Shown one piece after another: positions 5,946-63,740 of a stretch of DNA of 64,000 bases. A program made the position numbers and the translations under genes. Origin of the DNA: a virus. Its lineage: Duplodnaviria; Heunggongvirae; Uroviricota; Caudoviricetes. Positions within the stretch are counted from its first letter, which is position 1. Every line of letters begins with the position of its first letter. The notes under the pieces were generated by a model. That model was not told the origin of the DNA. It ran no database searches and was given only the letters and a program-made list of their open reading frames with translations. The stretch lies in IMG/VR virus record IMGVR_UViG_3300010882_000010; one strand, given 5' to 3'.

Positions 5946-7301
5946 GTGAAAATATCAAACATAGAAAAGAATCTTCAAATAGCAAAAACTCTTAATCAAA
6001 CAAGATTAAAGAGGAAGAATCAGATTTGTAAAGTTTTTACTGTAAAAATTCAAGAAGATGCTTTAAAACCACAACAGAAAGAGTTTCTTCAAATGGTTTT
6101 CTTAGAAGCAAAGTGGTTGGTTAATCATATCCTTAATTGGAGTCAAGAAAGTGAAGAGAACAAGATATGGGAGTTTAAAGTAGATGGATTAAAGAAAGTT
6201 CAAAGAAAATTAAGAGATGGTTCTTTTGTAGAACAGGAATTGAAGTTTTTAAAAAGTCAAATAAAACAAGAAATTTGTGCAGGAATAGTTGAAGATATTA
6301 AATCATTATTAAAGAAAAAAGAAAAAGGACAAAAAGTTGGTAAGTTAAAGTTTAGAAAAGAAATTACATCAATTGATTTAGTACAATTTGGAATAACTTG
6401 GAAATATTATGATATTACACATGTTGGTATTCAAGGAATGAGTGGTAAAAGAGGAAAGAAATCTAAACTCAAAGTTAATGGCTTATCTCAAATCCCTTCA
6501 AATGCTGAATTCGCAAATGCAAAATTACTTAAAAAACCTTCAGGATACTATCTTGCTATAACAACCTATCTACCTAAAGAATCAAAACAAACTAAACAAT
6601 ACAAAGCCCCTATCGGAATTGATATGGGTTGCCAAACATCATTAACTTTATCAACAGGTGAAAAGATTAATGTTTCGATTAAAGAAAGTGAACGCTTAAA
6701 AAGATTACAGAGAAAACATGCTCGTCAGTATTTGATGAATCCTAAAGGTTCTAATAATCGAAAGAAAACTTTACATCTAATTAAAATTGAGTATGAAAAA
6801 CAAACCAACAAGAAAAACGATCTCGCAAACAAAGTAATTAAGGATCTTTTAGAACATGAAATTATTTTTATGCAAAATGAGAATCTTAAAGGATGGAAGA
6901 AAAAGAAAAGAACTAAAAAAGGAAAGAAACTTAATCATCTTTCTTTTGGTAGACAGATCCAATCTTCAATCCTTGGAAGAGTTAAATCAAAACTTAAAGG
7001 ACATGAAAGAGTAGTTGTAGTAAATCAATTTGAACCTACTTCAAAAACATGTTTACAATGTGGATTTAAGAATGAAGATTTAAAACTTTCAGATAGAAAT
7101 TTTAAGTGTTCTCAATGTGGTTTTGAAATGGATAGGGATATCCATGCAGCTCAAAACATGATTAAGTTTGGTAAGAAACAATTAATAGGGCAGGGACTGT
7201 CCAAATTAACGCCTATAGAGATTGAAGCTCTACATGAAAATTCTTTAAGAAATTTTAATGCAACTTTGGTCGGTGAAGTAGGAACTCAAATAAAAATTTG
7301 A
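5946..7301 (+). CDS. tnpB: TnpB/OrfB-family RuvC-like nuclease (IS200/IS605 accessory protein; an RNA-guided OMEGA nuclease family).
   Basis: RuvC-I APIGIDMGCQT, C4 zinc finger TCLQCG...CSQCG, and RuvC-III DRDIHAAQNM. GTG start 15 nt after a copy of the GGAATAAATAGTAAAAG motif. Confidence 0.85.
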   Translation: MKISNIEKNLQIAKTLNQTRLKRKNQICKVFTVKIQEDALKPQQKEFLQMVFLEAKWLVNHILNWSQESEENKIWEFKVDGLKKVQRKLRDGSFVEQELKFLKSQIKQEICAGIVEDIKSLLKKKEKGQKVGKLKFRKEITSIDLVQFGITWKYYDITHVGIQGMSGKRGKKSKLKVNGLSQIPSNAEFANAKLLKKPSGYYLAITTYLPKESKQTKQYKAPIGIDMGCQTSLTLSTGEKINVSIKESERLKRLQRKHARQYLMNPKGSNNRKKTLHLIKIEYEKQTNKKNDLANKVIKDLLEHEIIFMQNENLKGWKKKKRTKKGKKLNHLSFGRQIQSSILGRVKSKLKGHERVVVVNQFEPTSKTCLQCGFKNEDLKLSDRNFKCSQCGFEMDRDIHAAQNMIKFGKKQLIGQGLSKLTPIEIEALHENSLRNFNATLVGEVGTQIKI

Positions 7302-39973: not shown

Positions 39974-40165
39974 ATGAACACAATTAGAATTTCCATGTCA
40001 ATAATGTCCTATCTTTCAGATGCACAAGCAATGATAGAATTAGGTATGCTTAAAGAAGCAAATGCCAGAATTAACTGTGCAAAATCAATTTTGTTAGATT
40101 TTCCGAATACTAATGAGGAAGTAGACAAAAGAGCAATTTACGAATCAATTAAAGAATGGTTGTAA
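39974..40165 (+). CDS. Hypothetical protein.
   Basis: 63-aa ORF. Confidence 0.4.
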   Translation: MNTIRISMSIMSYLSDAQAMIELGMLKEANARINCAKSILLDFPNTNEEVDKRAIYESIKEWL

Positions 40166-41430
40166 TGGAAGGAATAGTAATAATTAACAATGCACAGACA
40201 CAAGCAGGTAAGATTTTATTGGAACTTGAATGTGAACGAATAGTAAACCAAGAACCATTCATTACAAATCTTATTGCAATAGGTGGAAAGCCATATTATG
40301 TTGGCGGTTTTGTAAGGGACTATTTAATGGGTAGACCTAATAAAGATATTGACATCATAGTTGAAGGGCTTAATATTGAACAGATTAGAAAATCTTTGAC
40401 TTACTTTGGTAAAGTAGATGTTGTTGGAGAAAGTTTTGCGGTTGTAAAGTTTAAATCTTCAGATACCGGAATTGAGTATGATATTGCAGCACCAAGAATC
40501 GACAAGAAAGTTGCAGAAGGTCACAAAGGGTTTGAAGTTGTTTCAGGAAGTGAAGTAACTTTAGAAGAGGATCTTTTGCGTAGAGATTTCAGAATTAATA
40601 GTATTGCAGTTGACATCCAAACAGGGAAAATAGTGGATCCATTTAATGGAATTGCTGATATTGAAAAACGTAGAATTACAATGACAAATCCTCAAGCTTT
40701 TCTTGATGATCCATTGAGAATTTTAAGGGCTGTTCAATTTTCTATTCGGTTTGATTTTTCAATAACAGATGGAACTTTCCAATTGATGAGAGAACATATG
40801 AAGTTGATTAAAGAAATTCCTGGCGAGAGAATACATGAAGAGTTTGTTAAAATTGCTATGAAAAATGGCAGTGCTATTAAGACTTACCAATTATTAAGAC
40901 AGTTGAATTTTCATCAATACTTTAATAGTAGTATGCAATGGGTAATTAATTCAGTTCAAGATCTTAAGATTGGAAGATTAAAGACAGGAATTTACGAGTA
41001 CAATACAATGGGTGAGTTTTTTACTATCATTTGCGGTTGTCATTCTAAAGCACCGGAATTTTATCAAGAAGTTTTGAAGGGTGAAACAAGCACATATAAA
41101 CAGATGAAAGCCATTCTATTTTACAAGAAAAACAGGTTTGAACATCCGGGAATTTTGGCAAGTAAAATGGTGAAGATTACGAATGATAGTTTTAGTTTTA
41201 CTAAAAATGTTGTGCCAGATGATGAAGTAAGAAGGTACTTGCATGATATGAGAGATGAGATATTGCCGGCATACGTAAAGGATTTGAAAATTAATGGTAA
41301 TGATGCAATAGAAGCAGGATATGAAGGTAAAAGAATTGGAGATATCTTGCAACGACTTTACGAAGGGGTAATAATGGGATGGTTTCCAAATGAACGTGAA
41401 AAATTGTTAGAACTTTTAAAATTAAAGTAA
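40156..41430 (+). CDS. tRNA nucleotidyltransferase (CCA-adding enzyme / poly(A) polymerase family, class II).
   Basis: Head-domain signature GGKPYYVGGFVRDYLMGRPNKDIDIIVEG (GGxVRD ... DxD). Confidence 0.75.
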   Translation: MVVMEGIVIINNAQTQAGKILLELECERIVNQEPFITNLIAIGGKPYYVGGFVRDYLMGRPNKDIDIIVEGLNIEQIRKSLTYFGKVDVVGESFAVVKFKSSDTGIEYDIAAPRIDKKVAEGHKGFEVVSGSEVTLEEDLLRRDFRINSIAVDIQTGKIVDPFNGIADIEKRRITMTNPQAFLDDPLRILRAVQFSIRFDFSITDGTFQLMREHMKLIKEIPGERIHEEFVKIAMKNGSAIKTYQLLRQLNFHQYFNSSMQWVINSVQDLKIGRLKTGIYEYNTMGEFFTIICGCHSKAPEFYQEVLKGETSTYKQMKAILFYKKNRFEHPGILASKMVKITNDSFSFTKNVVPDDEVRRYLHDMRDEILPAYVKDLKINGNDAIEAGYEGKRIGDILQRLYEGVIMGWFPNEREKLLELLKLK

Positions 41431-54329: not shown

Positions 54330-54500
54330 ATGAAAAAATTAGTAGGACTATTACTTAGTATTATCTTAGTAGCAACAGCTTGTTCATACGGGCATAAAGT
54401 AAACAATGAAACAATTGAAATTGATTCTTTGGAATTTGTTGTAGATACAGTAAATTATGATATAGATACAACTTTTGTAGAAATTGATACTTTAAACTAA
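54330..54500 (+). CDS. Small putative lipoprotein (56 aa).
   Basis: MKKLVGLLLSIILVATACSYGH... is a signal peptide plus Cys. Preceded by GGAATAGATAGTAAAG at 54285-54300. Below the ORF-track cutoff. Confidence 0.35.
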   Translation: MKKLVGLLLSIILVATACSYGHKVNNETIEIDSLEFVVDTVNYDIDTTFVEIDTLN

Positions 54501-54691
54501 AACTTTTTATAACTCGCGCATAATAATTAAAACAATAAAATTACAATAATGAAACTTCAAGCAATTAATTTTAGAAAGAATTGGGAAAACATAGTGGATT
54601 TTATCATTGAGAGAATGGATGATAAAGTTGATTGTGATATGGGTTTTTATTGTAGTAGATGAAGTAAGTGAGATAATTAAGAAACAATGAA

Positions 54692-54722
54692 AGCCCGAAT
54701 CCAAAAAAGTTCGGGTTTTTTT
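54692..54722 (+). terminator. Rho-independent terminator.
   Basis: GC-rich hairpin cccgaa-tccaaaaaag-ttcggg followed by tttttttgtttt. Confidence 0.6.
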
Positions 54723-54741
54723 GTTTTAAGAGAAATGATGA

Positions 54742-54810
54742 AATTGTTAGTAACTTTCTGAACTAACTGAAAAATCAGAAAGAAAAAAGTGCTATTTTTG
54801 TGTTTCAAAA
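54742..54810 (+). promoter_or_regulatory. Promoter element copy F, at the 5' edge of the tRNA array.
   Basis: aattgttagtaactttctg ... gctatttttgtg (54793-54800), followed by the aaaatgc x3 repeat. Confidence 0.5.
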
Positions 54811-54831
54811 ATGCAAAATGCAAAATGCAAA
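54809..54831 (+). repeat. Short tandem repeat (AAAATGC)x3.
   Basis: aaaatgcaaaatgcaaaatgcaaat lies directly downstream of promoter copy F. Confidence 0.5.
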
Positions 54832-54866
54832 TAGCATAGAGTACTTTGAAAAAGTGAAAAATTTTA

Positions 54867-54941
54867 CCGTTTTCGTGGTGTAATGGCGTGCATAACTCCC
54901 TGTCACGGAGTAGGTCGGAGTTCGAACCTCCCGGGGACGGC
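54867..54941 (+). tRNA. Putative tRNA-Asp (anticodon GTC); weak acceptor and D stems.
   Basis: Anticodon arm actcc-CTGTCAC-ggagt and T arm ggag-ttcgaac-ctcc. The acceptor ccgtttt/gggacgg needs 3 G-U pairs. Confidence 0.4.
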
Positions 54942-54965
54942 AAAACAAAAAGAGCAAAAAACTAA

Positions 54966-55030
54966 AATTGTTAGTAACTTTTTCCAACTATTAGAAGTTG
55001 GTATTGAAATTTTTAGTATTTTTGTACTGT
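54966..55030 (+). promoter_or_regulatory. Promoter element copy G, upstream of the main tRNA array.
   Basis: aattgttagtaactttttcc ... tagtatttttgtac (55017-55024). Confidence 0.5.
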
Positions 55031-55145
55031 TCTTTGACATCTTGAATGAAAAAGTAAAGTAAAAAAGCAGATTCACTTTACTACCATGAACGAGGGATCC
55101 TATGGGTAAACTCTTAAAATGGAATTGTAATGGATTTGCTATTAT

Positions 55146-55218
55146 GCTCCTGTCATCTAAGGGTTTAGGATAAGTGATTTTCGATCACTAAATCGGGGTT
55201 CGAATCCCCGTGGGAGTA
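55146..55218 (+). tRNA. tRNA-Glu (anticodon TTC).
   Basis: Acceptor gctcctg/tgggagt, D stem atct/ggat, anticodon arm agtga-TTTTCGA-tcact, T arm cgggg-ttcgaat-ccccg. No encoded CCA. Confidence 0.7.
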
Positions 55219-55624
55219 CAAAGTTGTTAAAAGACGTTTTAATAACCTGGAGAGTTCGAAATCTCCGATCGAGCATAGTTTAGAGGGAACAGCCTGTCTG
55301 TGTAGGTCTAATTGACCGATAAGACGGGCGGGTGTAAGGTTCGAATCCTTATGGTTTGGCAGAATTTTGATTTGAAATTATCATTAGAGGTGTTAGTCCA
55401 TGTAGATTAACACCTCAGTGGTTAGGAAATCAAAGAAAAAACAACAACAGAATACTAAACATTGCGATGAGGGTCTGCAATATGGTACTAGTAAAACATC
55501 TCCCAAGGTGAATTAGAGGCGGGTTCCGCGGCATGTTAAACCTTAAAACATTGAAGTTTGGTAATTCTGTTTTTTTAATTAGGTACAATAGTTAAAATGA
55601 AAAGGCAATAAGCCCAATAAAAAT

Positions 55625-55644
55625 AGAGATACATAGTAAAAAGA
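55625..55644 (+). promoter_or_regulatory. Copy 8 of the motif, degenerate (GAGATACATAGTAAAAAG).
   Basis: Upstream of the ATG at 55653 (Vsr-like endonuclease). Confidence 0.35.
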
Positions 55645-55652
55645 AGATTACT

Positions 55653-56471
55653 ATGCCTCGAAAAATTATTGATACTTTAAGAAATTGTGAAAATTGTGAA
55701 ATTGAATTTTTTGGACATACAAGGTTTTGTTCATTAAGTTGTAAAGGAAAGTATCTTGCCAAACGTTCATTAGAAGTACGAAAAGAATTGGGTGTATCTA
55801 TCGGAGCTAAAGTAGGTAGAAAAAACAAGAATGCACTTGGAAATTGGAAATGTGAAATTTGTGAAGAAGTTTTTAGAACAAGAAGAGAATTACAAGATCA
55901 TAAAAAAGTTCATGGAACAAGCATAGAACGAAACAAAGAAAAATTAAAAAAGGAGTACACTTGTCAATATTGTGGTAGATTGAAAATAACTACAAAAGAA
56001 GGTGCAACTAATCACGAAAGAGTTTGTAAAGAAAATCCTAATAGACAAAAAACATCACAAGAAGGAAAATCATTAACAGTAGAACACAAACAAAATGTTT
56101 CTAGAGGAATGAAAAAAGCACACGAAGAAGGACGAGCTTGGAATATTGGAAAAAGTAGATGGAATAATGAACCTTCTTATCCTGAAAAATGGTTTATGCA
56201 AGTAATAGAAAATGAGTTTAATGATAAATTGTATGAAAGAGAGTATTCTTGTAGTATTTACTCAATTGATTTTGCATGGGTGCATAAAATGAAAGGTATT
56301 GAAATTGATGGTTCACAACATCAAAGATTTAAAGAATATCAAGAAAGAGATGAGAGAAAAATGAAAAAGTGTACTGAATTTGGATGGAAAATTTTAAGAA
56401 TATCGTGGAAAGAATGTTTTAATAATCCAAAACAATGGATTAAAATAGCAAAAGAATTCATTGAAAATTAA
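55653..56471 (+). CDS. Homing endonuclease-like protein: C2H2/zinc-ribbon motifs, a NUMOD3-like segment, and a C-terminal DUF559/Vsr-like PD-(D/E)xK domain.
   Basis: CENCEIEF..CSLSC; CEICEEVFRTRRELQDHKKVH; NUMOD3-like LTVEHKQNVSRGMKKAHEEGR; C-terminal YSIDFAWVHKMKGIEIDGSQHQ...ERDERKMKKCTEFGWKILRISWKE. Inserted inside the tRNA array. Confidence 0.65.
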   Translation: MPRKIIDTLRNCENCEIEFFGHTRFCSLSCKGKYLAKRSLEVRKELGVSIGAKVGRKNKNALGNWKCEICEEVFRTRRELQDHKKVHGTSIERNKEKLKKEYTCQYCGRLKITTKEGATNHERVCKENPNRQKTSQEGKSLTVEHKQNVSRGMKKAHEEGRAWNIGKSRWNNEPSYPEKWFMQVIENEFNDKLYEREYSCSIYSIDFAWVHKMKGIEIDGSQHQRFKEYQERDERKMKKCTEFGWKILRISWKECFNNPKQWIKIAKEFIEN

Positions 56472-56472
56472 A

Positions 56473-56544
56473 GGGCTGGTAGCTCCAATGTAGAGCGGAA
56501 TCCTGTTAAGATTATGGTTGGTGGTTCAAGTCCACCCCAGCCCG
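56473..56544 (+). tRNA. tRNA-Asn (anticodon GTT).
   Basis: Acceptor gggctgg/ccagccc (perfect), D arm gctc-caatgta-gagc, anticodon arm gaatc-CTGTTAA-gatta, T arm ggtgg-ttcaagt-ccacc. Starts 2 nt after the upstream stop codon. Confidence 0.85.
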
Positions 56545-56745
56545 CAAAAAAATCAACAAACTGGATCCGACGTAATACAGAAGAAAAAACGGGGAAACAG
56601 AATTGCAATTAGATTGCTAATTTTGCTAATCATTTAGCTCATCCACAGTAGTCAGTTTGTTTTTAAAGAAATAGTGCGGGATAGACTGGAGGTGGTTCCA
56701 GCTCGGTCTCAATAAAGTATCCAACTTACTGTTAATTAGTTGGTT

Positions 56746-56791
56746 ACCGGAAAATAGTTGGAATATTAGGGTTCGAATCCTTATTCCGGTA
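56746..56791 (+). ncRNA. tRNA-like minihelix (acceptor stem plus T arm only).
   Basis: accggaa-aatagttggaatat-taggg/ttcgaat/cctta-ttccggt-a, with a perfect 7-bp acceptor-like stem. Confidence 0.4.
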
Positions 56792-56843
56792 CTAAGCCGA
56801 ACTACGTGGGTTCGACTCCCACTCCCGCTACAAAGTTTGATAC

Positions 56844-56897
56844 TTTTGATTTTTTGGGAAAAATCCGGATAGGTGAGTTCGAATCTCACATCAAAAG
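56844..56897 (+). ncRNA. tRNA-like minihelix (acceptor stem plus T arm only).
   Basis: ttttgat-tttttgggaaaaatccggatag-gtgag/ttcgaat/ctcac-atcaaaa-g, with a perfect 7-bp stem. Confidence 0.4.
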
Positions 56898-57119
56898 TAA
56901 AGAACCTAAAAGATAGGTTGTTAAGTGACTGAGCCTGAACGTATTCACTCTATGTACTCGGCTTTAACATGAAAGTAAAGGAAATTCCTGGGTGAACTAG
57001 CAGGTGGTAAAACTAGAACGAAGTAAGATGCTCTGTTTGAAGAATGAAACATCATCTGGCAACGGGGTTGTGTAGCCAAAGTTGACAACCAAGATCAACA
57101 CTTACTATCTTTTTCTCAT

Positions 57120-57192
57120 AGTGCTGAGGTCAAACGGTTAAGATGTCGCCCTGTCACGGCGTACGGAGCGGGTTCAACTCCCGTCAGCACTG
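57120..57192 (+). tRNA. tRNA-Asp (anticodon GTC).
   Basis: Acceptor agtgctg/cagcact (perfect), anticodon arm cgcc-CTGTCAC-ggcg, T arm gcggg-ttcaact-cccgt. Confidence 0.7.
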
Positions 57193-57600
57193 CATAATTA
57201 TCTAAAAAGATGCGGATTGAGTACTTTTGGTGAAACATGTGGAGAAACCAAAAGGATTAGCAAATTCAAGAAGGTGTTTTTAGGATTATGGCTTATTTGG
57301 ACTGCTATTCAAGTAGGTTGCAATAATTTCTAACTATTGGTGTAATTAGGTAACACGCTCTTCGAGGAGGAGGGAATTGAGAGTTCGAGTCTTTCATAGT
57401 AAGAAAGGTTTGCGTAGGTATTGCATAGCATTAAGGTTTAATGTGCTGGGAGGAAATCCCGGAGAATGGGTTCGAATCTCAACAATATCACAAAATGGCG
57501 AAGTACGCCCGTAATTGGTACACGGGGTCAATCTGAAAATTAAAAGATTGAATACTGCAAAGATTTCATTGTAAGTTCGATTCTTTCCTTCGCCGCAAAT

Positions 57601-57730
57601 TAGGGTGTAGCTCAGTGGTTAGAGCGCGTAAAATTCAACAACTAAAATCTGATAGTCAAAGGTTTTATGCAGCAAAAAATTAGAAATTGCATTCAGGAGC
57701 ACGATGTCGGTGGTTCGAATCCATCCACCC
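57601..57730 (+). tRNA. tRNA-like gene with a ~55-60 nt insertion in the anticodon region (candidate intron-containing or otherwise atypical tRNA).
   Basis: Canonical 5' half tagggtg-ta-gctc-agtggtta-gagc-g and 3' end ggtgg-ttcgaat-ccatc-cacccta (perfect 7-bp acceptor), but about 83 nt lie between the D stem and the T stem where about 22 are expected. Confidence 0.4.
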
Positions 57731-57817
57731 TAACTTTTTAAGTGCTTGTAGCAAAACGGCTTCGCCGCTGGCTTTTAACCAGCAGAAGGAGGTTCGACTC
57801 CTCCCAGGCACACTTAG

Positions 57818-57890
57818 GCTCTTATGGCGCAATTGGTAGCGCTGCTGGTTCTTACCCAGTAGGTTGGTGGTTCGAATCCATCTAGGAGTA
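57818..57890 (+). tRNA. tRNA-Lys (anticodon CTT).
   Basis: Acceptor gctctta/taggagt, D arm gcgc-aattggta-gcgc, anticodon arm gctgg-TTCTTAC-ccagt, T arm ggtgg-ttcgaat-ccatc. Confidence 0.7.
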
Positions 57891-58080
57891 CACAAAGGTT
57901 TCTTACAGCAACTTTTAGGACTCAACTTTTAATTGAACATTCTGAATGAAACCTGAAATTTTACATCCACAGTTTAATGGTTAAATACCTGAGATGCATG
58001 TCATGAAACTTGGGAGTTTGTCAGTTCGAGTCTGACTGGATGTGCTAAAAATCTTAACAAAATGGAAAACTTTAAGTAAT

Positions 58081-58156
58081 GGCCGAGTAGCTGCAATTGG
58101 TACAGCGCGGGTGTGAAGTACCCGGACTCTTGTAGGTTCGACTCCTACCTTGGCCA
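58081..58156 (+). tRNA. tRNA-Phe (anticodon GAA).
   Basis: Acceptor ggccgag/cttggcc, D arm gctg-caattggta-cagc, anticodon arm cgggt-GTGAAGT-acccg, T arm gtagg-ttcgact-cctac. Confidence 0.8.
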
Positions 58157-58165
58157 CAAAATCAT

Positions 58166-58241
58166 TGACCTCTAGCGAAATTGGTTTAATGCAGCGCGCT
58201 CATAACGCGAAGATGTACAGGTTCGAGTCCTGTGGGGTCAA
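58166..58241 (+). tRNA. tRNA with anticodon CAT (Met, initiator, or a lysidine-Ile tRNA).
   Basis: Acceptor tgacctc/ggggtca, anticodon arm gcgc-CTCATAA-gcgc, T arm acagg-ttcgagt-cctgt. Confidence 0.65.
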
Positions 58242-58247
58242 CAATAT

Positions 58248-58318
58248 TGGAGATTGTTGTAACAGTAGCGATTTGGTTTTACATACCAACAGAGGCGGGG
58301 CAGCACCGTCATCTCCAA
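58248..58318 (+). tRNA. tRNA-Val (anticodon TAC).
   Basis: Acceptor tggagat/atctcca (perfect), anticodon arm ttggt-TTTACAT-accaa, and a non-canonical T loop (ggcgg-ggcagca-ccgtc). Confidence 0.6.
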
Positions 58319-58327
58319 CAAACTTAT

Positions 58328-58399
58328 TGCCTGCTAGCTCAGAAGTAGAGCAATCGGCTGATATCCGATAGGTGCGAGGAGCATTACCTCGGCAGGCAA
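58328..58399 (+). tRNA. tRNA-Ile (anticodon GAT).
   Basis: Acceptor tgcctgc/gcaggca (perfect), D arm gctc-agaagta-gagc, anticodon arm atcgg-CTGATAT-ccgat, T arm cgagg-agcatta-cctcg (non-canonical loop). Confidence 0.7.
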
Positions 58400-58508
58400 C
58401 TAATCATAAAACACTTATGGATGCAATTCTTATCTATTGTTATCGTGGTAAGTTGCAGAATTTTTAAGTCGACTATGGAATTTTAAGTGCCCTTTGATGA
58501 TTCTTTAT

Positions 58509-58578
58509 TGCAATGTAGATAATGATAGTCATACGGTTTCATGAACCGGAAGTCTTGGTTTGAATCCAAGCATTGCAA
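58509..58578 (+). tRNA. Second tRNA with anticodon CAT (Met, fMet or Ile2); degenerate D arm.
   Basis: Acceptor tgcaatg/cattgca (perfect), anticodon arm cggt-TTCATGA-accg, T arm cttgg-tttgaat-ccaag. Confidence 0.5.
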
Positions 58579-58585
58579 CAATTAA

Positions 58586-58658
58586 GCCTCTGTAGTTCAA
58601 TTGGATAGAACAAGAGATTTCTAATCTCTAAATCGGGAATCATGCTCCTGTGGAGGTA
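58586..58658 (+). tRNA. tRNA-Arg (anticodon TCT).
   Basis: Acceptor gcctctg/tggaggt (3 G-U pairs), D arm gttc-aattggata-gaac, anticodon arm agaga-TTTCTAA-tctct, T arm cggga-atcatgc-tcctg. Confidence 0.65.
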
Positions 58659-58686
58659 CTAAATTTTAGTTTTCAAAAAATTACTT

Positions 58687-58703
58687 GGAATAGATAGAGA
58701 AAA
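58687..58703 (+). promoter_or_regulatory. Copy 9 of the motif, degenerate (GGAATAGATAGAGAAAA).
   Basis: Upstream of the HD-domain gene at 58707. Confidence 0.35.
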
Positions 58704-58706
58704 CAC

Positions 58707-59207
58707 TTGCCTATGGTAAGAAAATCTAATCAGGAAATAGTGGACCTAGCGGCACAACTCGCAAAAGAAATTCATGGTTCACAAGCTGATAAACAAGGTG
58801 TTAACTATTTTCAAGGTCATTTGACAGAAGTAGCAAGTCATTGTCGAGAATGGAAAGAAAAAATCATTGCATATTTGCATGATGTTAGTAAGTTCACAGA
58901 CATTTCAGAGTCTGAATTGGTAATGATTTTGCAAGATCGTTCAAATGGTAGATTAACAGACAAAATTGCAATAAAATTAAAGAAAGCACTTTGGCTTTTA
59001 GATCCAAAGAATTCAAAAACAAGAGAAGATTACATCGAGGGGATTAAAACTAATTATCTTGCAACAAAAGTAAAATTATGGGATTTGCAAGATAACATGA
59101 ACCTTGTTAAGATGAAAAATCCAAAACAGAAAGATTTTTTGAGAATACAAAAATACTATAAAGAGTATGCTAATTTGATTAATCTTTCTCATTACAAAGT
59201 ATTATAA
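58707..59207 (+). CDS. HD-domain phosphohydrolase-like protein.
   Basis: H ... HD arrangement: IHGSQADKQGVNYFQGHLTEVASH...IIAYLHDVSK. Preceded by a degenerate GGAATAGATAGAGAAAAC motif (58687-58703). Confidence 0.55.
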   Translation: MPMVRKSNQEIVDLAAQLAKEIHGSQADKQGVNYFQGHLTEVASHCREWKEKIIAYLHDVSKFTDISESELVMILQDRSNGRLTDKIAIKLKKALWLLDPKNSKTREDYIEGIKTNYLATKVKLWDLQDNMNLVKMKNPKQKDFLRIQKYYKEYANLINLSHYKVL

Positions 59208-59343
59208 TACAGGTCTTACCCAATGGATAGGGGGAATCGGTTACAACCCGATTAAAAATGTGCATTCGAATCGTCAAAGACCTGCTATTAAAAAAATCAA
59301 TAAAACTAAAACTTTTTTCATTCAAGGTATAATAATATTAAAT

Positions 59344-59473
59344 TGAAGGGTGGTGGAATTGGTATGCACCGGAGTCGAAAGGTTTTCTGAGATAAAAGAA
59401 AGTATGTAGTAATTATCGAATGGTAAAACCGGCGCTTAAAAAGCAATTGTAGGTTCAAGTCCTACCTCTTCAA
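59344..59473 (+). tRNA. tRNA-like gene with intact acceptor, D and T arms but a ~55 nt expanded central region.
   Basis: Acceptor tgaaggg/ctcttca, D arm ggtg-(g)aattggtatg-cacc, T arm gtagg-ttcaagt-cctac; total 130 nt. Confidence 0.35.
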
Positions 59474-60142
59474 CAAAATTAAAGGTTCCATACGGCAACT
59501 AATTCCAATTTGACTGTTACTCAAACTCCAACGGAACCTGAAGAAATCGCGACGGAAAAATGTGAAGTAAAAGGAGTCTCAAAAACCGTAATGGATATGA
59601 GATAGAGGTATGTGGTAGACCATTAATTGTAGGAAACTAGAATTAAAAAGTAATGAAAATTACAATCATAATAAGCAATTTTTCAAACAGTTACTTTAGT
59701 TGGTTCAAATCCAACACCGTCGCCAAAATACGTGATTATCCCGGTTCCCTTCGAGTTGAAAAATTCTAGAACACCGCGCTTAGGATAATCCTTTTTTACT
59801 GAATGGAATGTTAGTTTGGAAGCAGCTATTCATCTAAGGGGTGCGTAACAGCTCACCATTCAGAAGTCTCTAACAACCTCCATATGAATCAAGCCAGATT
59901 TTGTTCATTGTTAGAGTAAAAGCAAGAGTATGGATAGACAGAAATTGCAGGTGCAAAGTTGTGAGTAGTGGCGAGCGAAAACAGAGTGTCAGACATCAAG
60001 AACTTGAAAAGAACTGGCTGCGACAATCAAGTTCTTAATAATAGAGAGTGTTTAGAAATAGGCACTCTTTTTTCATTTTAACAGATTTTTAGCAAAACTT
60101 TTCCTAATTTTTGAGTTTAATTAAAAGCAAAAATTAAAATTA

Positions 60143-60159
60143 AGAATAGATAGTAAAAG
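60143..60159 (+). promoter_or_regulatory. Copy 10 of the motif (AGAATAGATAGTAAAAG).
   Basis: 8 nt upstream of the second TnpB-like gene (ATG at 60168). Confidence 0.45.
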
Positions 60160-60167
60160 TAATTAAC

Positions 60168-61406
60168 ATGATTTTATCAGAACAACACATCATTAAAAAA
60201 TCAAATCCTCTTTATCAAGAGTTAGATATGTTGTGTTTTTTATCTAAAAATCTCTACAATTTAGCTCTTTATTCTGTACGCCAACACTATTTTGAAACAG
60301 GAAAGTTTTTGGGAAAATTTGAGTTAATTAAGAACTTCACAAAGGAGAAACAGAAAGATTTTAAAAAATTAACGCATAGAGTAGCACAACAAATTATTTT
60401 TCAAGTAGAACAAGATATGCGTTCATTTTTTGCTCTTTTAAAGTTAAAACAAAAAGGACAATATCAAGGTAAAGTTAAATTACCTAAGTACAAAGAAAAA
60501 CAAGGTAGGAATGTAGCAATTTTTGAGATAATGGGTATTTCAGGAAAAGAATTAAAGAAAGGAATTATCAAATTTGGTGGAATGGAAATTAACAAAAAGT
60601 TTGTTCCGTTGGTTAAAAGAACCATCAAAACCAAACAATCTAAAGTTCAACAAGTTAGAATAATCCCTAAAAACGGATACTATACTGTAGAAGTGCTTTA
60701 CAAAGTAGAATCAAAACAAAAGAAAGAAGATAATCAAAAGTACTTATCAATTGATTTGGGCATAAACAACTTAGCAACTTTAACTTCTAATGTAACTAAA
60801 CCTATCATAGTAAACGGGAAACCTGTAAAGAGTATTAACCAATTTTACAATAAAACTAAAGCAAAACTCTCTTCACAATTAGAAACAGTAAACAAAACTA
60901 AATCATCAAAAAGAACTCAATCTTTATCCTTAAAGAGAAACAACAAAATTAAAGATTACTTTCACAAGACATCTAGATTCATAGTGAATCACGCAATTTC
61001 TAATGACCTTAATACCATAATTATCGGTAAAAATCAAGGCTGGAAACAAGACACAAATCTAGGTAGAGTTAATAATCAAAAGTTTGTTTCAATTCCGTTT
61101 AACAATTTAATTCAAATGATAAGCTACAAAGCTGAATTACAAGGAATTAAAGTTATTGTAAGAGAAGAAAGTTACACAAGCCAAGCAAGTTTCTTAGATA
61201 ATGATTTCATACCAAAGTATGGGGATAAGGAAATTAAGGAATTTAGCGGGAAAAGGATTAAGAGAGGTCTCTACCAGACTAAAAATGGTAGATTAATTAA
61301 TGCTGATGTTAACGGAAGTTTAAACATCATGAAAAAAGAAGTTCCAAATGCCTTAAATGGATATGGAATAGAGGTGTGCAGCACGCCATTAGTTGTAGGA
61401 TTCTAG
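60168..61406 (+). CDS. TnpB-like RuvC nuclease (IS200/IS605 OrfB family) with no zinc-finger cysteines.
   Basis: RuvC-I YLSIDLGINNLATL, RuvC-II VIVREESYTSQ, RuvC-III ADVNGSLNIMKK. There is no CxxC pair between the RuvC-II and RuvC-III motifs. Preceded by AGAATAGATAGTAAAAG (60143-60159). Confidence 0.75.
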   Translation: MILSEQHIIKKSNPLYQELDMLCFLSKNLYNLALYSVRQHYFETGKFLGKFELIKNFTKEKQKDFKKLTHRVAQQIIFQVEQDMRSFFALLKLKQKGQYQGKVKLPKYKEKQGRNVAIFEIMGISGKELKKGIIKFGGMEINKKFVPLVKRTIKTKQSKVQQVRIIPKNGYYTVEVLYKVESKQKKEDNQKYLSIDLGINNLATLTSNVTKPIIVNGKPVKSINQFYNKTKAKLSSQLETVNKTKSSKRTQSLSLKRNNKIKDYFHKTSRFIVNHAISNDLNTIIIGKNQGWKQDTNLGRVNNQKFVSIPFNNLIQMISYKAELQGIKVIVREESYTSQASFLDNDFIPKYGDKEIKEFSGKRIKRGLYQTKNGRLINADVNGSLNIMKKEVPNALNGYGIEVCSTPLVVGF

Positions 61407-61480
61407 AACTAAGAAAATTTCAGAAAATTAAAACTTTTTGAAAGTTAGTTGTAATAATAGCAATTAAAATTACTAAGAAG

Positions 61481-61810
61481 ATGAAGTATGTTAAAAAACC
61501 TATCCCGGTAGAATGTTACACTTGGGATGAAGTAATCCAAGATTTTCATGAAGAAAAGTTTGTTAAGAATGTTGTTATGCACACGAATGTAAAGGGTGAT
61601 ATCAATGGTGCTACTTTTGAAATTAACAATAGAACTATGAAATGGGATCCAATTAATGGAGTGATGAGAATTGGAACTTTAGAAGGAGAAATGACAATGC
61701 AACGTGCTGACATCCTGATAATTGGGGTTCGGGGGGAATGTTATCCCTGTAGAGGTGATATTTTTGAAGAGACATACGAATTGTATGTTGAAAATCACAA
61801 TTTCAATTAG
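61481..61810 (+). CDS. Hypothetical protein.
   Basis: 109-aa ORF. Confidence 0.5.
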   Translation: MKYVKKPIPVECYTWDEVIQDFHEEKFVKNVVMHTNVKGDINGATFEINNRTMKWDPINGVMRIGTLEGEMTMQRADILIIGVRGECYPCRGDIFEETYELYVENHNFN

Positions 61811-62129: not shown

Positions 62130-63740
62130 ATGAAACAATACCTTGAATTATGCAAAGAGATAATCCAAGATGGAGAATTAAAAACGCCGGCGAGAAAAAA
62201 CATGCCAGCAACCATAGAACTTTTTAAGAGAGATTTGAGTTTTGATCTCAGAGAAGGTTTTCCGTTATTAACAACAAAAAAAGTTAACTTAAAGAACATC
62301 ATTACTGAATTATTTTGGTTTTTGAATGGTGAGAGTGATGTTAGATTTCTCACCAAACGAGGTTGTAATATCTGGAATGAGGATACTTTCAAGTTTGTTA
62401 AAGCGCAATATGAAAAAGAAAGTGAACCGGTTTTTAAATCACTGGGATTTGATGTGAAATTTCCAACCTATGAAGAGTGGATTAAGATTGGTAAAGGTGA
62501 GATGGAATGGCAATTTACACCAAATGCAGAAGCACCTATTAACAGGTATTTTGAAGGCGGCGAAGTGTATGGAAGACACTGGAGAAACTTTAACAATTTG
62601 ATACTTAATGATATACCTGTAATTAAGGATGGCGCTGATAGAGGATTTACCGATTTAATAATGAACGGAACAGATCAATTTTTGGCTTTAATTAATGGAA
62701 TTTTAACTAATCCCGATTCTCGTTATCATATTGTGAGTGCCTGGAATCCAACTGTTTTAGAAAAGAAAATGGCATGTTTACCAAGTTGTCATATCCTCTA
62801 TCAGTGTTCAATTTCAAAATCACGTTATCTTGATCTTTACATCTATCAAAGGAGTTGTGATTTTCCATTGGGTGTACCATATGATATCGCAAGTTATGCT
62901 ACTTTAATGCACATCATTTGCTATTTGACCGGATATGAACCTGGAATGTTACATTGGACGGGTGGAAGTTGTCATCTTTATGAAAATCAAATTACTACAA
63001 TGAGAGAACAGGTAGAGAGAAATCCAAAAGTACTACCAAAACTAAAGTGTGAATTAAAAGATGTTTTAGAACCAAACACAGAAGGAAGTGAATTAGGTCT
63101 TAAAATTTCTAGGCATATTAATGATAGTACACCATACACCAAAGAAGAACTTGCTGAGATTTTTGTTCCTGAAAGTTGGATTATTGAACTTGAAAATTAT
63201 GATAGTTATCCTGTGATAAATTATCCATTCTCTTCAGGCAAGGACAGATTTTGTAATGTTGCAGCAATAATTACCGTGCAAAATGGTGAAGAATTTACCT
63301 ACAAGCAAAATGTTGAAGAGTGGATGGTACATAATCCGAGAATGTTCAAGAATTTTGCAAAGAATGGAGTTGTTGTAACAGATGAAAATGGAAGAGCTTT
63401 GCTAAGTTCAAGATTAGGAATTGAAAATTGTTACACTTTGATGGAAGGAGACGATCCTAAAGAATTTTTAGAAGAGTTAAGAAAAACACAAGATCAAGTA
63501 GTTTACCTTTTTGGAAACTGGTCTTTGTATGAAAAGTTTTTGAAAGCAAGTTTGGTAGATGTAATTTACGGAACTTTTTGGTGTCAAGCATACGATTATT
63601 CAGATAAGAAATCTGTTAATGTTGATTGGGTAATGGATGATTTTGAAAGTGTATGGAGTTCTAATATCGAAGAAAACGGAAGGAAAAGTTATCAGTACAT
63701 TTGGCACAATAAAGAGTTCATTAAAAAATATCGAAAGTAA
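62130..63740 (+). CDS. Thymidylate-synthase-family enzyme, probably a dCMP hydroxymethylase or methylase (Asp at the ThyA Asn177 position), fused to a ~230 aa C-terminal domain.
   Basis: MKQYLELCKEI...GFPLLTTKKVNLKNIITELFWFLNG; catalytic Cys in LPSCHILYQ; RSCDFPLGVPYDIASYATLMHII, where ThyA has ...PFNIASY. The C-terminal half has a DHFR-like ...VVYLFGNWSLYEKFL segment. Confidence 0.75.
   Translation: MKQYLELCKEIIQDGELKTPARKNMPATIELFKRDLSFDLREGFPLLTTKKVNLKNIITELFWFLNGESDVRFLTKRGCNIWNEDTFKFVKAQYEKESEPVFKSLGFDVKFPTYEEWIKIGKGEMEWQFTPNAEAPINRYFEGGEVYGRHWRNFNNLILNDIPVIKDGADRGFTDLIMNGTDQFLALINGILTNPDSRYHIVSAWNPTVLEKKMACLPSCHILYQCSISKSRYLDLYIYQRSCDFPLGVPYDIASYATLMHIICYLTGYEPGMLHWTGGSCHLYENQITTMREQVERNPKVLPKLKCELKDVLEPNTEGSELGLKISRHINDSTPYTKEELAEIFVPESWIIELENYDSYPVINYPFSSGKDRFCNVAAIITVQNGEEFTYKQNVEEWMVHNPRMFKNFAKNGVVVTDENGRALLSSRLGIENCYTLMEGDDPKEFLEELRKTQDQVVYLFGNWSLYEKFLKASLVDVIYGTFWCQAYDYSDKKSVNVDWVMDDFESVWSSNIEENGRKSYQYIWHNKEFIKKYRK

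Follow-up and report, generated by a model that had tools for sequence, protein, structure and literature searches.

What fills the oversized transfer RNA (tRNA) genes in the tRNA array of a tailed phage? The question arises in IMG/VR virus record IMGVR_UViG_3300010882_000010 (Caudoviricetes), analyzed here as a stretch of 64,000 nucleotides (nt; ‘the window’) with a G+C content of 31.5%. The phage has a size of ~160–219 kb and occurs in several ENA assemblies. The array occupies 54.8–59.7 kb, with all of its features on the + strand, and an initial annotation of the window had pointed out three tRNA-like loci with an expanded anticodon region. We found that the three loci are real and bounded them at 57601–57733 (A), 59344–59473 (B), and 59549–59724 (C). 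The extra sequence, estimated earlier at 55–110 nt, measures 59, 47, and ~140 nt, respectively. Among the explanations offered at the time, insertions and decayed genes fit best, and small introns gained no positive support. The filling of C is firmly explained as an orphan copy of the omegaRNA and right end of a TnpB element inside a tRNA remnant. The array as a whole has probably been scarred by insertions at the DNA level, not by introns, and is decaying.

The filling of C lies in a tRNA frame: a 7-base-pair (bp) acceptor stem that pairs GCGACGG (59549–59555) with CCGTCGC (59717–59723), and a canonical T arm (59699–59715). The 5′ acceptor strand and the T arm are separated by ~130–140 nt that include neither a D arm nor a 5′ anticodon strand. 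None of the single deletions that we enumerated restores a tRNA.

Directly downstream of the array lies a tnpB gene (60168–61406) whose product matches OrfB_IS605 (E 1e-20) and a TNB domain (E 8e-11). In TnpB elements, the 3′ region of tnpB encodes the omegaRNA scaffold (PMC10278001, PMC13565253). A repeat search identified 59590–59649 within C as 78% identical to 61356–61415, a segment made up of the last tnpB codons and bases past the stop. Compared over its entire length with 61322–61459, the 141-nt filling of C (59556–59696) gave a Smith–Waterman score of 49 against 14.5 ± 2.2 for dinucleotide shuffles (0/1000), and the similarity to the tnpB tail was also found by blastn (E 1.7e-13) and nhmmer (E 1e-5 to 9e-8). 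In a tblastn comparison the remnant still encodes NGYEIEVCGRPLIVG, against NGYGIEVCSTPLVVG in TnpB, whose C-terminus reads NGYGIEVCSTPLVVGF up to the stop; C retains only 15 residues of that C-terminus. The content of C is the last ~85 nt of the tnpB frame plus the downstream end, which jointly encode the omegaRNA scaffold. No intact tnpB open reading frame (ORF) overlaps the scaffold in C, no ORF lies upstream of it, and there is no left end. Neither the TnpB identity of 60168–61406 nor the origin of the C filling had been part of the initial annotation.

The same conclusion came from a covariance model, R1. Its alignment comprised 17 tails from TnpB relatives that share this C-terminal tail, and this window was excluded. 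Helix 1 is 95% paired in the 17-tail alignment, with compensatory changes in five of its six pairs, and the covariation score was 0.487, compared with 0.22 after shuffling (0/500) and 0.10–0.16 for slid partners. R1 scores bona fide tnpB-linked tails elsewhere at 37–105 bits. Run over the 64 kb without filters, it returned only two significant matches, both full length: the tail of the resident tnpB, and C at 45 bits (E 2.1e-5, model positions 1–120 of 120). Three base pairs have changed in a compensatory manner between the neighboring copy and C (TTCCA/TGGAA → TCTCA/TGAGA; TTAGTT/AACTAA → TTAATT/AATTAA). These double changes argue that C came from a working variant and not from random decay of the neighboring copy. 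TnpB elements and interrupted phage tRNAs are already known; the tRNA-framed orphan omegaRNA is a new variation on them.

Relatives of the resident TnpB are common in large gut phages. Among the matches listed from one metagenome scan, identity was 39–51%, and a second copy in the same phage (P0123) is 88% identical. In L017, the closest relative that could be retrieved, tnpB is directly preceded by a resolvase gene, as is usual for IS607. The window also contains a second TnpB gene (5946–7301, +; TNB E 9e-15, OrfB_IS605 E 4e-7) that was missed by tblastn with the first TnpB. Three of the phage contigs with TnpB relatives (L018, L019, and L020; 171–414 kb) carry called genes whose translation under table 11 does not give the recorded proteins, which suggests stop-codon recoding in these large gut phages. 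In a 380-kb IMG/VR phage (L009), an array of 13 tRNAs has at its center a TnpB of a different subfamily (6001–7203; right end …TTTTTAATATCAT), placed between intact tRNAs and not within one.

Does C still make a guide RNA? ACGG(A) is present both in the acceptor strand at the left junction of C and at the corresponding point of tnpB. On the right, the element ends at 59679 (…AAGCAAT, compare …ATAGCAAT at 61464) or, by the model alignment, at 59691, and the 19 nt from the presumed end to the T stem are of guide-like length. With either end, the would-be guide is tRNA sequence, and the candidate targets would read TTTTCAAACAGTTACTTTAG or TACTTTAGTTGGTTCAAATC. C may still supply a usable omegaRNA whose guide is the tRNA sequence past the element end.

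A broader version of this idea is that the tRNA frames are processing or stability scaffolds for non-decoding RNAs. On this view, C would be a gene in its own right for a guide RNA used by the phage TnpB, excised by RNase P and 3′ processing, and A and B would act as decoys or carry a short motif that binds protein. The full length and compensatory changes of C favor such a role, as do the placement of the scaffold between a perfect acceptor and a canonical T arm with a guide-like 19 nt, and the perfect arms of A. C is also the sole orphan scaffold in 683 kb of related loci, and the T4 tRNA region likewise yields small RNAs of unknown role (PMC3014915). However, the 20-nt flank that would serve as guide has no further match within the window, and an IMG/VR pattern search for a scaffold together with a T arm returned no match and hence no second example of C. 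Relative to the intact copy, C has one weakened helix and lacks 15 nt near its end, the array contains many plainly broken tRNA fragments, and the anatomy of C is accounted for by an ordinary insertion and a later deletion at a microhomology. We regard a scaffold role for the three frames as quite unlikely. That C is a natural tRNA-framed guide RNA gene, its orphan omegaRNA freed by tRNA-processing enzymes and used in trans by the TnpB copies of the phage, is a long shot. If true, it would make C a natural counterpart of engineered tRNA–guide RNA arrays and would place it on the way from a selfish RNA of a transposon to a nuclease system that the phage can program.

For A and B, the identification as tRNA genes with one insertion each is firm. 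The Rfam tRNA model (RF00005) matches A from end to end, with 71 nt in place of the 11 expected by the model (an excess of 60 nt, located in the anticodon arm), and matches neither B nor C as they stand at E ≤ 10. When single deletions were enumerated for A, removal of 57630–57688 produced a perfect stem, CGTGC/GCACG, with the 8-nt loop ATTCAGGA, and ARAGORN at default settings recognized the product as a 75-nt tRNA with a four-base anticodon. B was found by the ARAGORN intron search proposed in the initial annotation, though only at a lowered threshold that brought spurious calls too. Removal of 59381–59427 turns B into a class II tRNA-Ser(CGA) with a long variable arm, again at default settings.

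The obviously spurious calls made by the relaxed intron mode in this region are the point in favor of treating the expanded loci as artefacts, composed of separate overlapping tRNA halves or of chance pairings. Against this, A scores 46 bits end to end, a single deletion makes A and B default-threshold tRNAs, and in C a GC-rich 7-bp acceptor adjoins a perfect T arm in DNA of 31% G+C. An artefact is therefore extremely improbable. Overlapping canonical tRNAs, the circumstance that the initial annotation had singled out as fatal to its claim, are ruled out by the Rfam score of A and by ARAGORN on restored A and B; the halves of A are not those of overlapping canonical tRNAs.

Could the inserts of A and B be introns? 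Neither has a stable fold of its own (z-scores of −0.41 for A and +0.95 for B). Across 54500–61700, no Rfam group I or II intron or ribozyme family matched even at E ≤ 10, theta (minimal hepatitis delta virus-like) ribozymes lying outside the models used; of the Infernal searches suggested earlier, the tRNA model thus found A, and the intron and tmRNA (transfer-messenger RNA) models found nothing. No bulge-helix-bulge (3-nt bulge, 4-bp helix, 3-nt bulge) could be drawn by hand for either locus. The position of the B insert (~37/38) fits protein-spliced tRNA introns, and that of the A insert (29/30) is non-canonical.

Similar inserts occur in other phages. An IMG/VR pattern scan for a D arm like the one here, followed by 60–90 nt and a T arm, identified nine further tRNA-like genes of the expanded type in the tRNA arrays of phages, four of which score 40–56 bits in Rfam. 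Inserts of 35–65 nt lie in the anticodon arm in L106 (476–606 and 763–889), L101 (960–1067, − strand), and L104 (9238–9360), and also in L102, L103/L105, L107, and L109. The second L106 locus (L106b) has a 54-nt GC-rich insert at nt 29/30, like A, and its removal leaves a perfect tRNA-Asn(GTT). Several of the GC-rich inserts begin AAAA..CCCGNC, finish GGTTAC(T), and include hairpins of the GNRA type; they may thus form a conserved insert family of their own. The DNA retrieved around these loci contains no TnpB, so anticodon-arm insertions recur in phages and are not all explained by TnpB elements. A different RNA, GOLLD (218 bits), lies within the tRNA array of one of these contigs, an unrelated IMG/VR phage (L104, 8137–8588).

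Such parallels feed the most substantial alternative – that A and B are working tRNA genes with introns of the kind described in Lak phages. Some phage or host activity would then remove the insert, which would give tRNA-Ser(CGA) from B and, from A, a tRNA that is Leu(CAG)-like or decodes four bases. One contiguous deletion suffices to make each a default ARAGORN tRNA, their bodies are intact, and their 3′ trailers resemble those of working tRNAs. The B insert lies at or beside the canonical 37/38 intron site, L106b is interrupted at the same nucleotides as A, and tRNA introns are conserved in Lak phages (PMC6784885). On the other side stand the missing bulge-helix-bulge, the unstructured inserts without an Rfam intron or ribozyme match, the 8-nt loop of restored A, and the lack of a splicing endonuclease or RNA ligase among the ~35 ORFs scanned. 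In addition, the codons that the interrupted tRNAs would serve are among the rarest in the phage (CUG 0.5 and UCG 2.2 per 1000), and the loss of these tRNAs should therefore cost little. We consider functional introns unlikely.

We next asked whether the A and B inserts resemble the transposon that explains C. The two inserts share AGTC(G)AAAGGTTTT, a 13–14-mer found at only these two sites in the window (0.02 expected), and their alignment extends over 35–43 nt and reaches the very end of the A insert. Under a window-wide empirical null, the left part of the A insert resembles the presumed transposon left end at 60129–60160 (p 0.0095), and the A and B inserts resemble the right end (p 0.011 and 0.012, respectively). 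The resemblance to transposon ends is weak, and we regard it as suggestive. By shuffling, the comparisons of B with C and of B with the sequence labelled T gave p 0.03–0.05, and these did not survive the proper null. Neither insert showed similarity to the flanks of the second TnpB gene. A further candidate transposon-end match at 59292–59337 (blastn E 0.003) was rejected when it ranked only sixth against the AT-rich background. Transposon scars are our preferred account of the A and B inserts over unrelated filler or true introns, at about even odds.

The explanation that we favor for the array is one in which mobile DNA would have invaded it repeatedly and left it in partial decay. Each expanded locus would be a tRNA gene broken at the DNA level by one foreign block in the anticodon arm. 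In C, this block is the full-length orphan right end of an IS200/IS605–IS607-type TnpB element, and a microhomology deletion at ACGG(A) may then have taken the remaining 5′ half of the tRNA and most of the element. With moderate support, we infer that the inserts of A and B derive from elements of this kind by shortening. It is similarly plausible that A, B, and C are unspliced, and so non-decoding, and that transcription of the array still includes them and their ends are processed as in tRNAs, which would yield stable tRNA-like RNAs of ~130–175 nt.

Several observations weigh against this explanation. The scaffold in C folds less stably than the intact copy (z −1.9 versus −4.25) and has an A–G mismatch in one helix. 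Restored A keeps an 8-nt anticodon loop and restored B an A–A mismatch at 31–39, and the acceptor, D, and T stems of A are all perfect, which is unexpected for an old unselected pseudogene. The transposon link of A and B is weak, each match lying in the ~1% tail of the null; nhmmer found no match in either insert, and R1 gave nothing significant there (15.8 bits, E 4, within B). None of ~90 TnpB relatives has a T arm within 400 nt past the tnpB stop. Finally, no TnpB accompanies the insert-bearing tRNAs of other phages in the DNA examined.

The array that contains these loci was confirmed by Rfam and ARAGORN, with slight corrections to the list of canonical genes in the initial annotation (Table 1). 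At 54.8–58.7 kb, 12 tRNAs, A among them, reach the RF00005 gathering threshold (29 bits) or E-value threshold. The other 11 score 41.7–64 bits, and ARAGORN concurs on 10 of the 12. The genes listed earlier stand, with Val-TAC (called by neither Rfam nor ARAGORN) supported by its fold; tRNA-Lys(TTT) and the second tRNA-Asp(GTC) had been missed. An extra ARAGORN call, Pro-AGG at 57330, is without Rfam support and doubtful. The non-canonical T loops reported before were seen in the Ile, Arg, and Val genes. Also as reported, no tRNA gene of the array encodes CCA, and a gene for a CCA-adding-type nucleotidyltransferase (PolyA_pol/CCA-type) is present at 40156–41430. The intact tRNAs match the commonest phage codons (AAA, AAT, GAT, GAA, TTT, ATT, and AGA). 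ARAGORN called no tmRNA. Candidate tmRNA, intron, ribozyme, and Y-RNA-like assignments were rejected, with nothing above Rfam noise (YrlA, 17 bits against a threshold of 69).

Table 1. Features of the tRNA array and the adjoining TnpB element, with the evidence for each.
Feature	Coordinates	Strand	Evidence
tRNA-Asp(GTC)	54869..54939	+	Rfam 43.4 bits; ARAGORN
tRNA-Glu(TTC)	55146..55218	+	Rfam 52.7 bits
Free-standing endonuclease gene	55653..56471	+	Pfam DUF559 33.8 bits, REase_MTES_1575 38.9 bits; PHROG 559
tRNA-Asn(GTT)	56473..56544	+	Rfam 55.6 bits
tRNA fragment: 8-bp acceptor-like stem and T arm, without D or anticodon arm	56746..56791	+	Rfam 22.4 bits, sub-threshold
Second tRNA-Asp(GTC)	57120..57192	+	Rfam 51.8 bits
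Element D: degenerate class-II-like tRNA, over-long anticodon loop	57497..57595	+	Rfam 26 bits, sub-threshold; fold z −2.7
Element A: complete tRNA interrupted in 5′ strand of anticodon stem	57601..57733	+	Rfam 46.1 bits
A insert, 59 nt, AT-rich	57630..57688	+	At tRNA nt 29/30; one-T ambiguity in boundary
tRNA-Lys(TTT)	57742..57812	+	Rfam 53.5 bits
tRNA-Lys(CTT)	57818..57890	+	Rfam 64 bits
tRNA-Phe(GAA)	58081..58156	+	Rfam 43.2 bits
tRNA-Met(CAT)	58166..58241	+	Rfam 50.2 bits
Val-type cloverleaf, anticodon TAC, non-canonical D and T loops	58248..58318	+	Fold z −2.6
tRNA-Ile(GAT), non-canonical T loop	58328..58399	+	Rfam 47.3 bits
tRNA-Met(CAT), second copy	58509..58578	+	Rfam 41.7 bits
tRNA-Arg(TCT), non-canonical T loop	58586..58658	+	Rfam 49.7 bits
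HD-type phosphohydrolase gene within array	58713..59207	+	phrog_990, E 2e-23
Element B: class II tRNA interrupted beside anticodon	59344..59473	+	ARAGORN intron mode, lowered threshold
B insert, 47 nt, AT-rich	59381..59427	+	~nt 37/38; boundary ambiguous in run of A
Element C: tRNA acceptor stem and T arm around orphan omegaRNA scaffold	59549..59724	+	Sequence reading; no tool calls tRNA
Orphan tnpB 3′ end, omegaRNA scaffold, and right end within C	59556..59691	+	Smith–Waterman, blastn, model R1
tnpB (OrfB_IS605 and Cas12f-like TNB domain)	60168..61406	+	Pfam; PHROG 506
TnpB’s own omegaRNA scaffold and right end	61322..61464	+	R1 65.3 bits, E 4e-9; fold z −4.25; family alignment

Besides the intact genes, at least eight further loci are damaged tRNA genes or fragments. 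T-arm sites resembling GGTTCRANTCC number 25 in the window, compared with 4.3 expected, and 15 of these lie on the + strand of the array. Several fall outside any complete tRNA (55338, 56770, 56809, 57469, and others), which agrees with the additional T-arm-like hairpins of the initial annotation: orphan T-arm sites are far above chance. Two paralogous orphan fragments (56861–56888 and 57454–57481; 75% identical) consist of a class II variable-arm-like hairpin and a T arm with no 5′ half, and more fragments lie at 55250–55275, 55330–55360, 56746–56791, and 56800–56832. A tRNA-like fold at 59210–59284 (+), called by no tool and absent from the initial annotation, has an 8-bp acceptor, a 6-bp anticodon stem, the loop TTACAAC (anticodon ACA), and a degenerate T arm.

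Two protein-coding genes are embedded in the array. The endonuclease ORF recognized earlier as DUF559-type does match DUF559, along with REase_MTES_1575, and also has weak C2H2 zinc-finger matches. No relatives of the HD phosphohydrolase protein were found. In IMG/VR, the two array-flanking proteins had no match, and GenBank phages have only single tRNAs in common with the array. The only syntenic relative found, L004 (the closest ThyA locus), shares a sigma factor, a PD-(D/E)XK nuclease, and ThyA. It is syntenic yet has no tRNA array at the corresponding position; the array is thus a variable island.

Two observations concern the DNA around the resident TnpB element. Between C and tnpB, a 65-nt hairpin-closed segment (59799–59863, +) has a core (59807–59856) that aligns with positions 1057–1104 of Escherichia coli 23S ribosomal RNA (rRNA), the L11-binding GTPase-associated center, with 37/49 positions identical. 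The alignment scores 25.5, compared with 13.9 ± 1.6 for shuffles and at most 17 in other phage windows, and the closing helix has diverged from 23S yet is still complementary. The segment, which is reported neither by the Rfam large-subunit rRNA models nor by blastn against E. coli, may mimic that rRNA domain as an independent unit or may be a piece of ribosomal DNA that was picked up. Downstream of tnpB, the thymidylate synthase (62130–63740, +) is unusually long at 536 amino acids, compared with ~300–340 in typical relatives; one similarly long enzyme turned up (P0003, 511 amino acids, 44% identity).

Very large phages have been known since 2019 to carry short insertions in their tRNA genes for which no mechanism was given. 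This window offers a checkable origin for at least one such insertion – the right end of a TnpB transposon – and precise boundaries for the A and B inserts, which turn an ‘enigmatic intron’ into a testable choice between DNA scar and RNA intron. It further shows that tRNA processing signals can enclose an omegaRNA scaffold that has persisted after separation from its nuclease gene, which bears on how guide RNAs and transposons separate. For annotation, such loci should not be counted by default as working tRNAs or as introns.

How does the locus compare with known systems? As in IS200/IS605–IS607 TnpB elements, the neighboring ORF has OrfB_IS605 and TNB domains, its tail fits the covarying scaffold of 17 relatives, and C matches that scaffold along its full length. 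Unlike these elements, C is without a tnpB ORF or left end and sits in a tRNA remnant, and no orphan scaffold or tRNA flank was found in the ~90 related loci or in IMG/VR. Devoto et al. 2019 described ‘enigmatic’ introns in the tRNAs of Lak megaphages, conserved across cohorts and given no mechanism (PMC6784885). There, as here, tRNA genes of a large phage are recognized only after an internal segment is removed, with no matching intron family or mechanism. In contrast to the conserved Lak introns, one insert here demonstrably comes from a transposon and the remaining two lack structure. IStrons, which combine a group I intron with an element of the IS200/605 or IS607 type (reviewed in PMC13565253), are similar in placing a TnpB-type element inside a gene whose transcript must cope. 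They differ in that Rfam finds no group I ribozyme here and the inserts, at 47–140 nt, are too small for self-splicing.

Two further comparisons concern the setting of the scaffold. The T4 endonuclease SegB is a GIY-YIG enzyme, unlike the DUF559/PD-(D/E)XK-like enzyme found here, and the likeness between the two is one of analogy only. In the T4 region with SegB, RNAC, and RNAD, as in this array, an endonuclease gene lies among tRNA genes and the cluster could give small non-tRNA RNAs (PMC3014915; SegB in PMC13565253). Engineered polycistronic tRNA–guide RNA arrays also resemble C. Those arrays are a laboratory design, and the processing and use of C are predictions only; in both, the guide RNA scaffold is flanked by tRNA elements that, in C, RNase P and 3′ enzymes should recognize.

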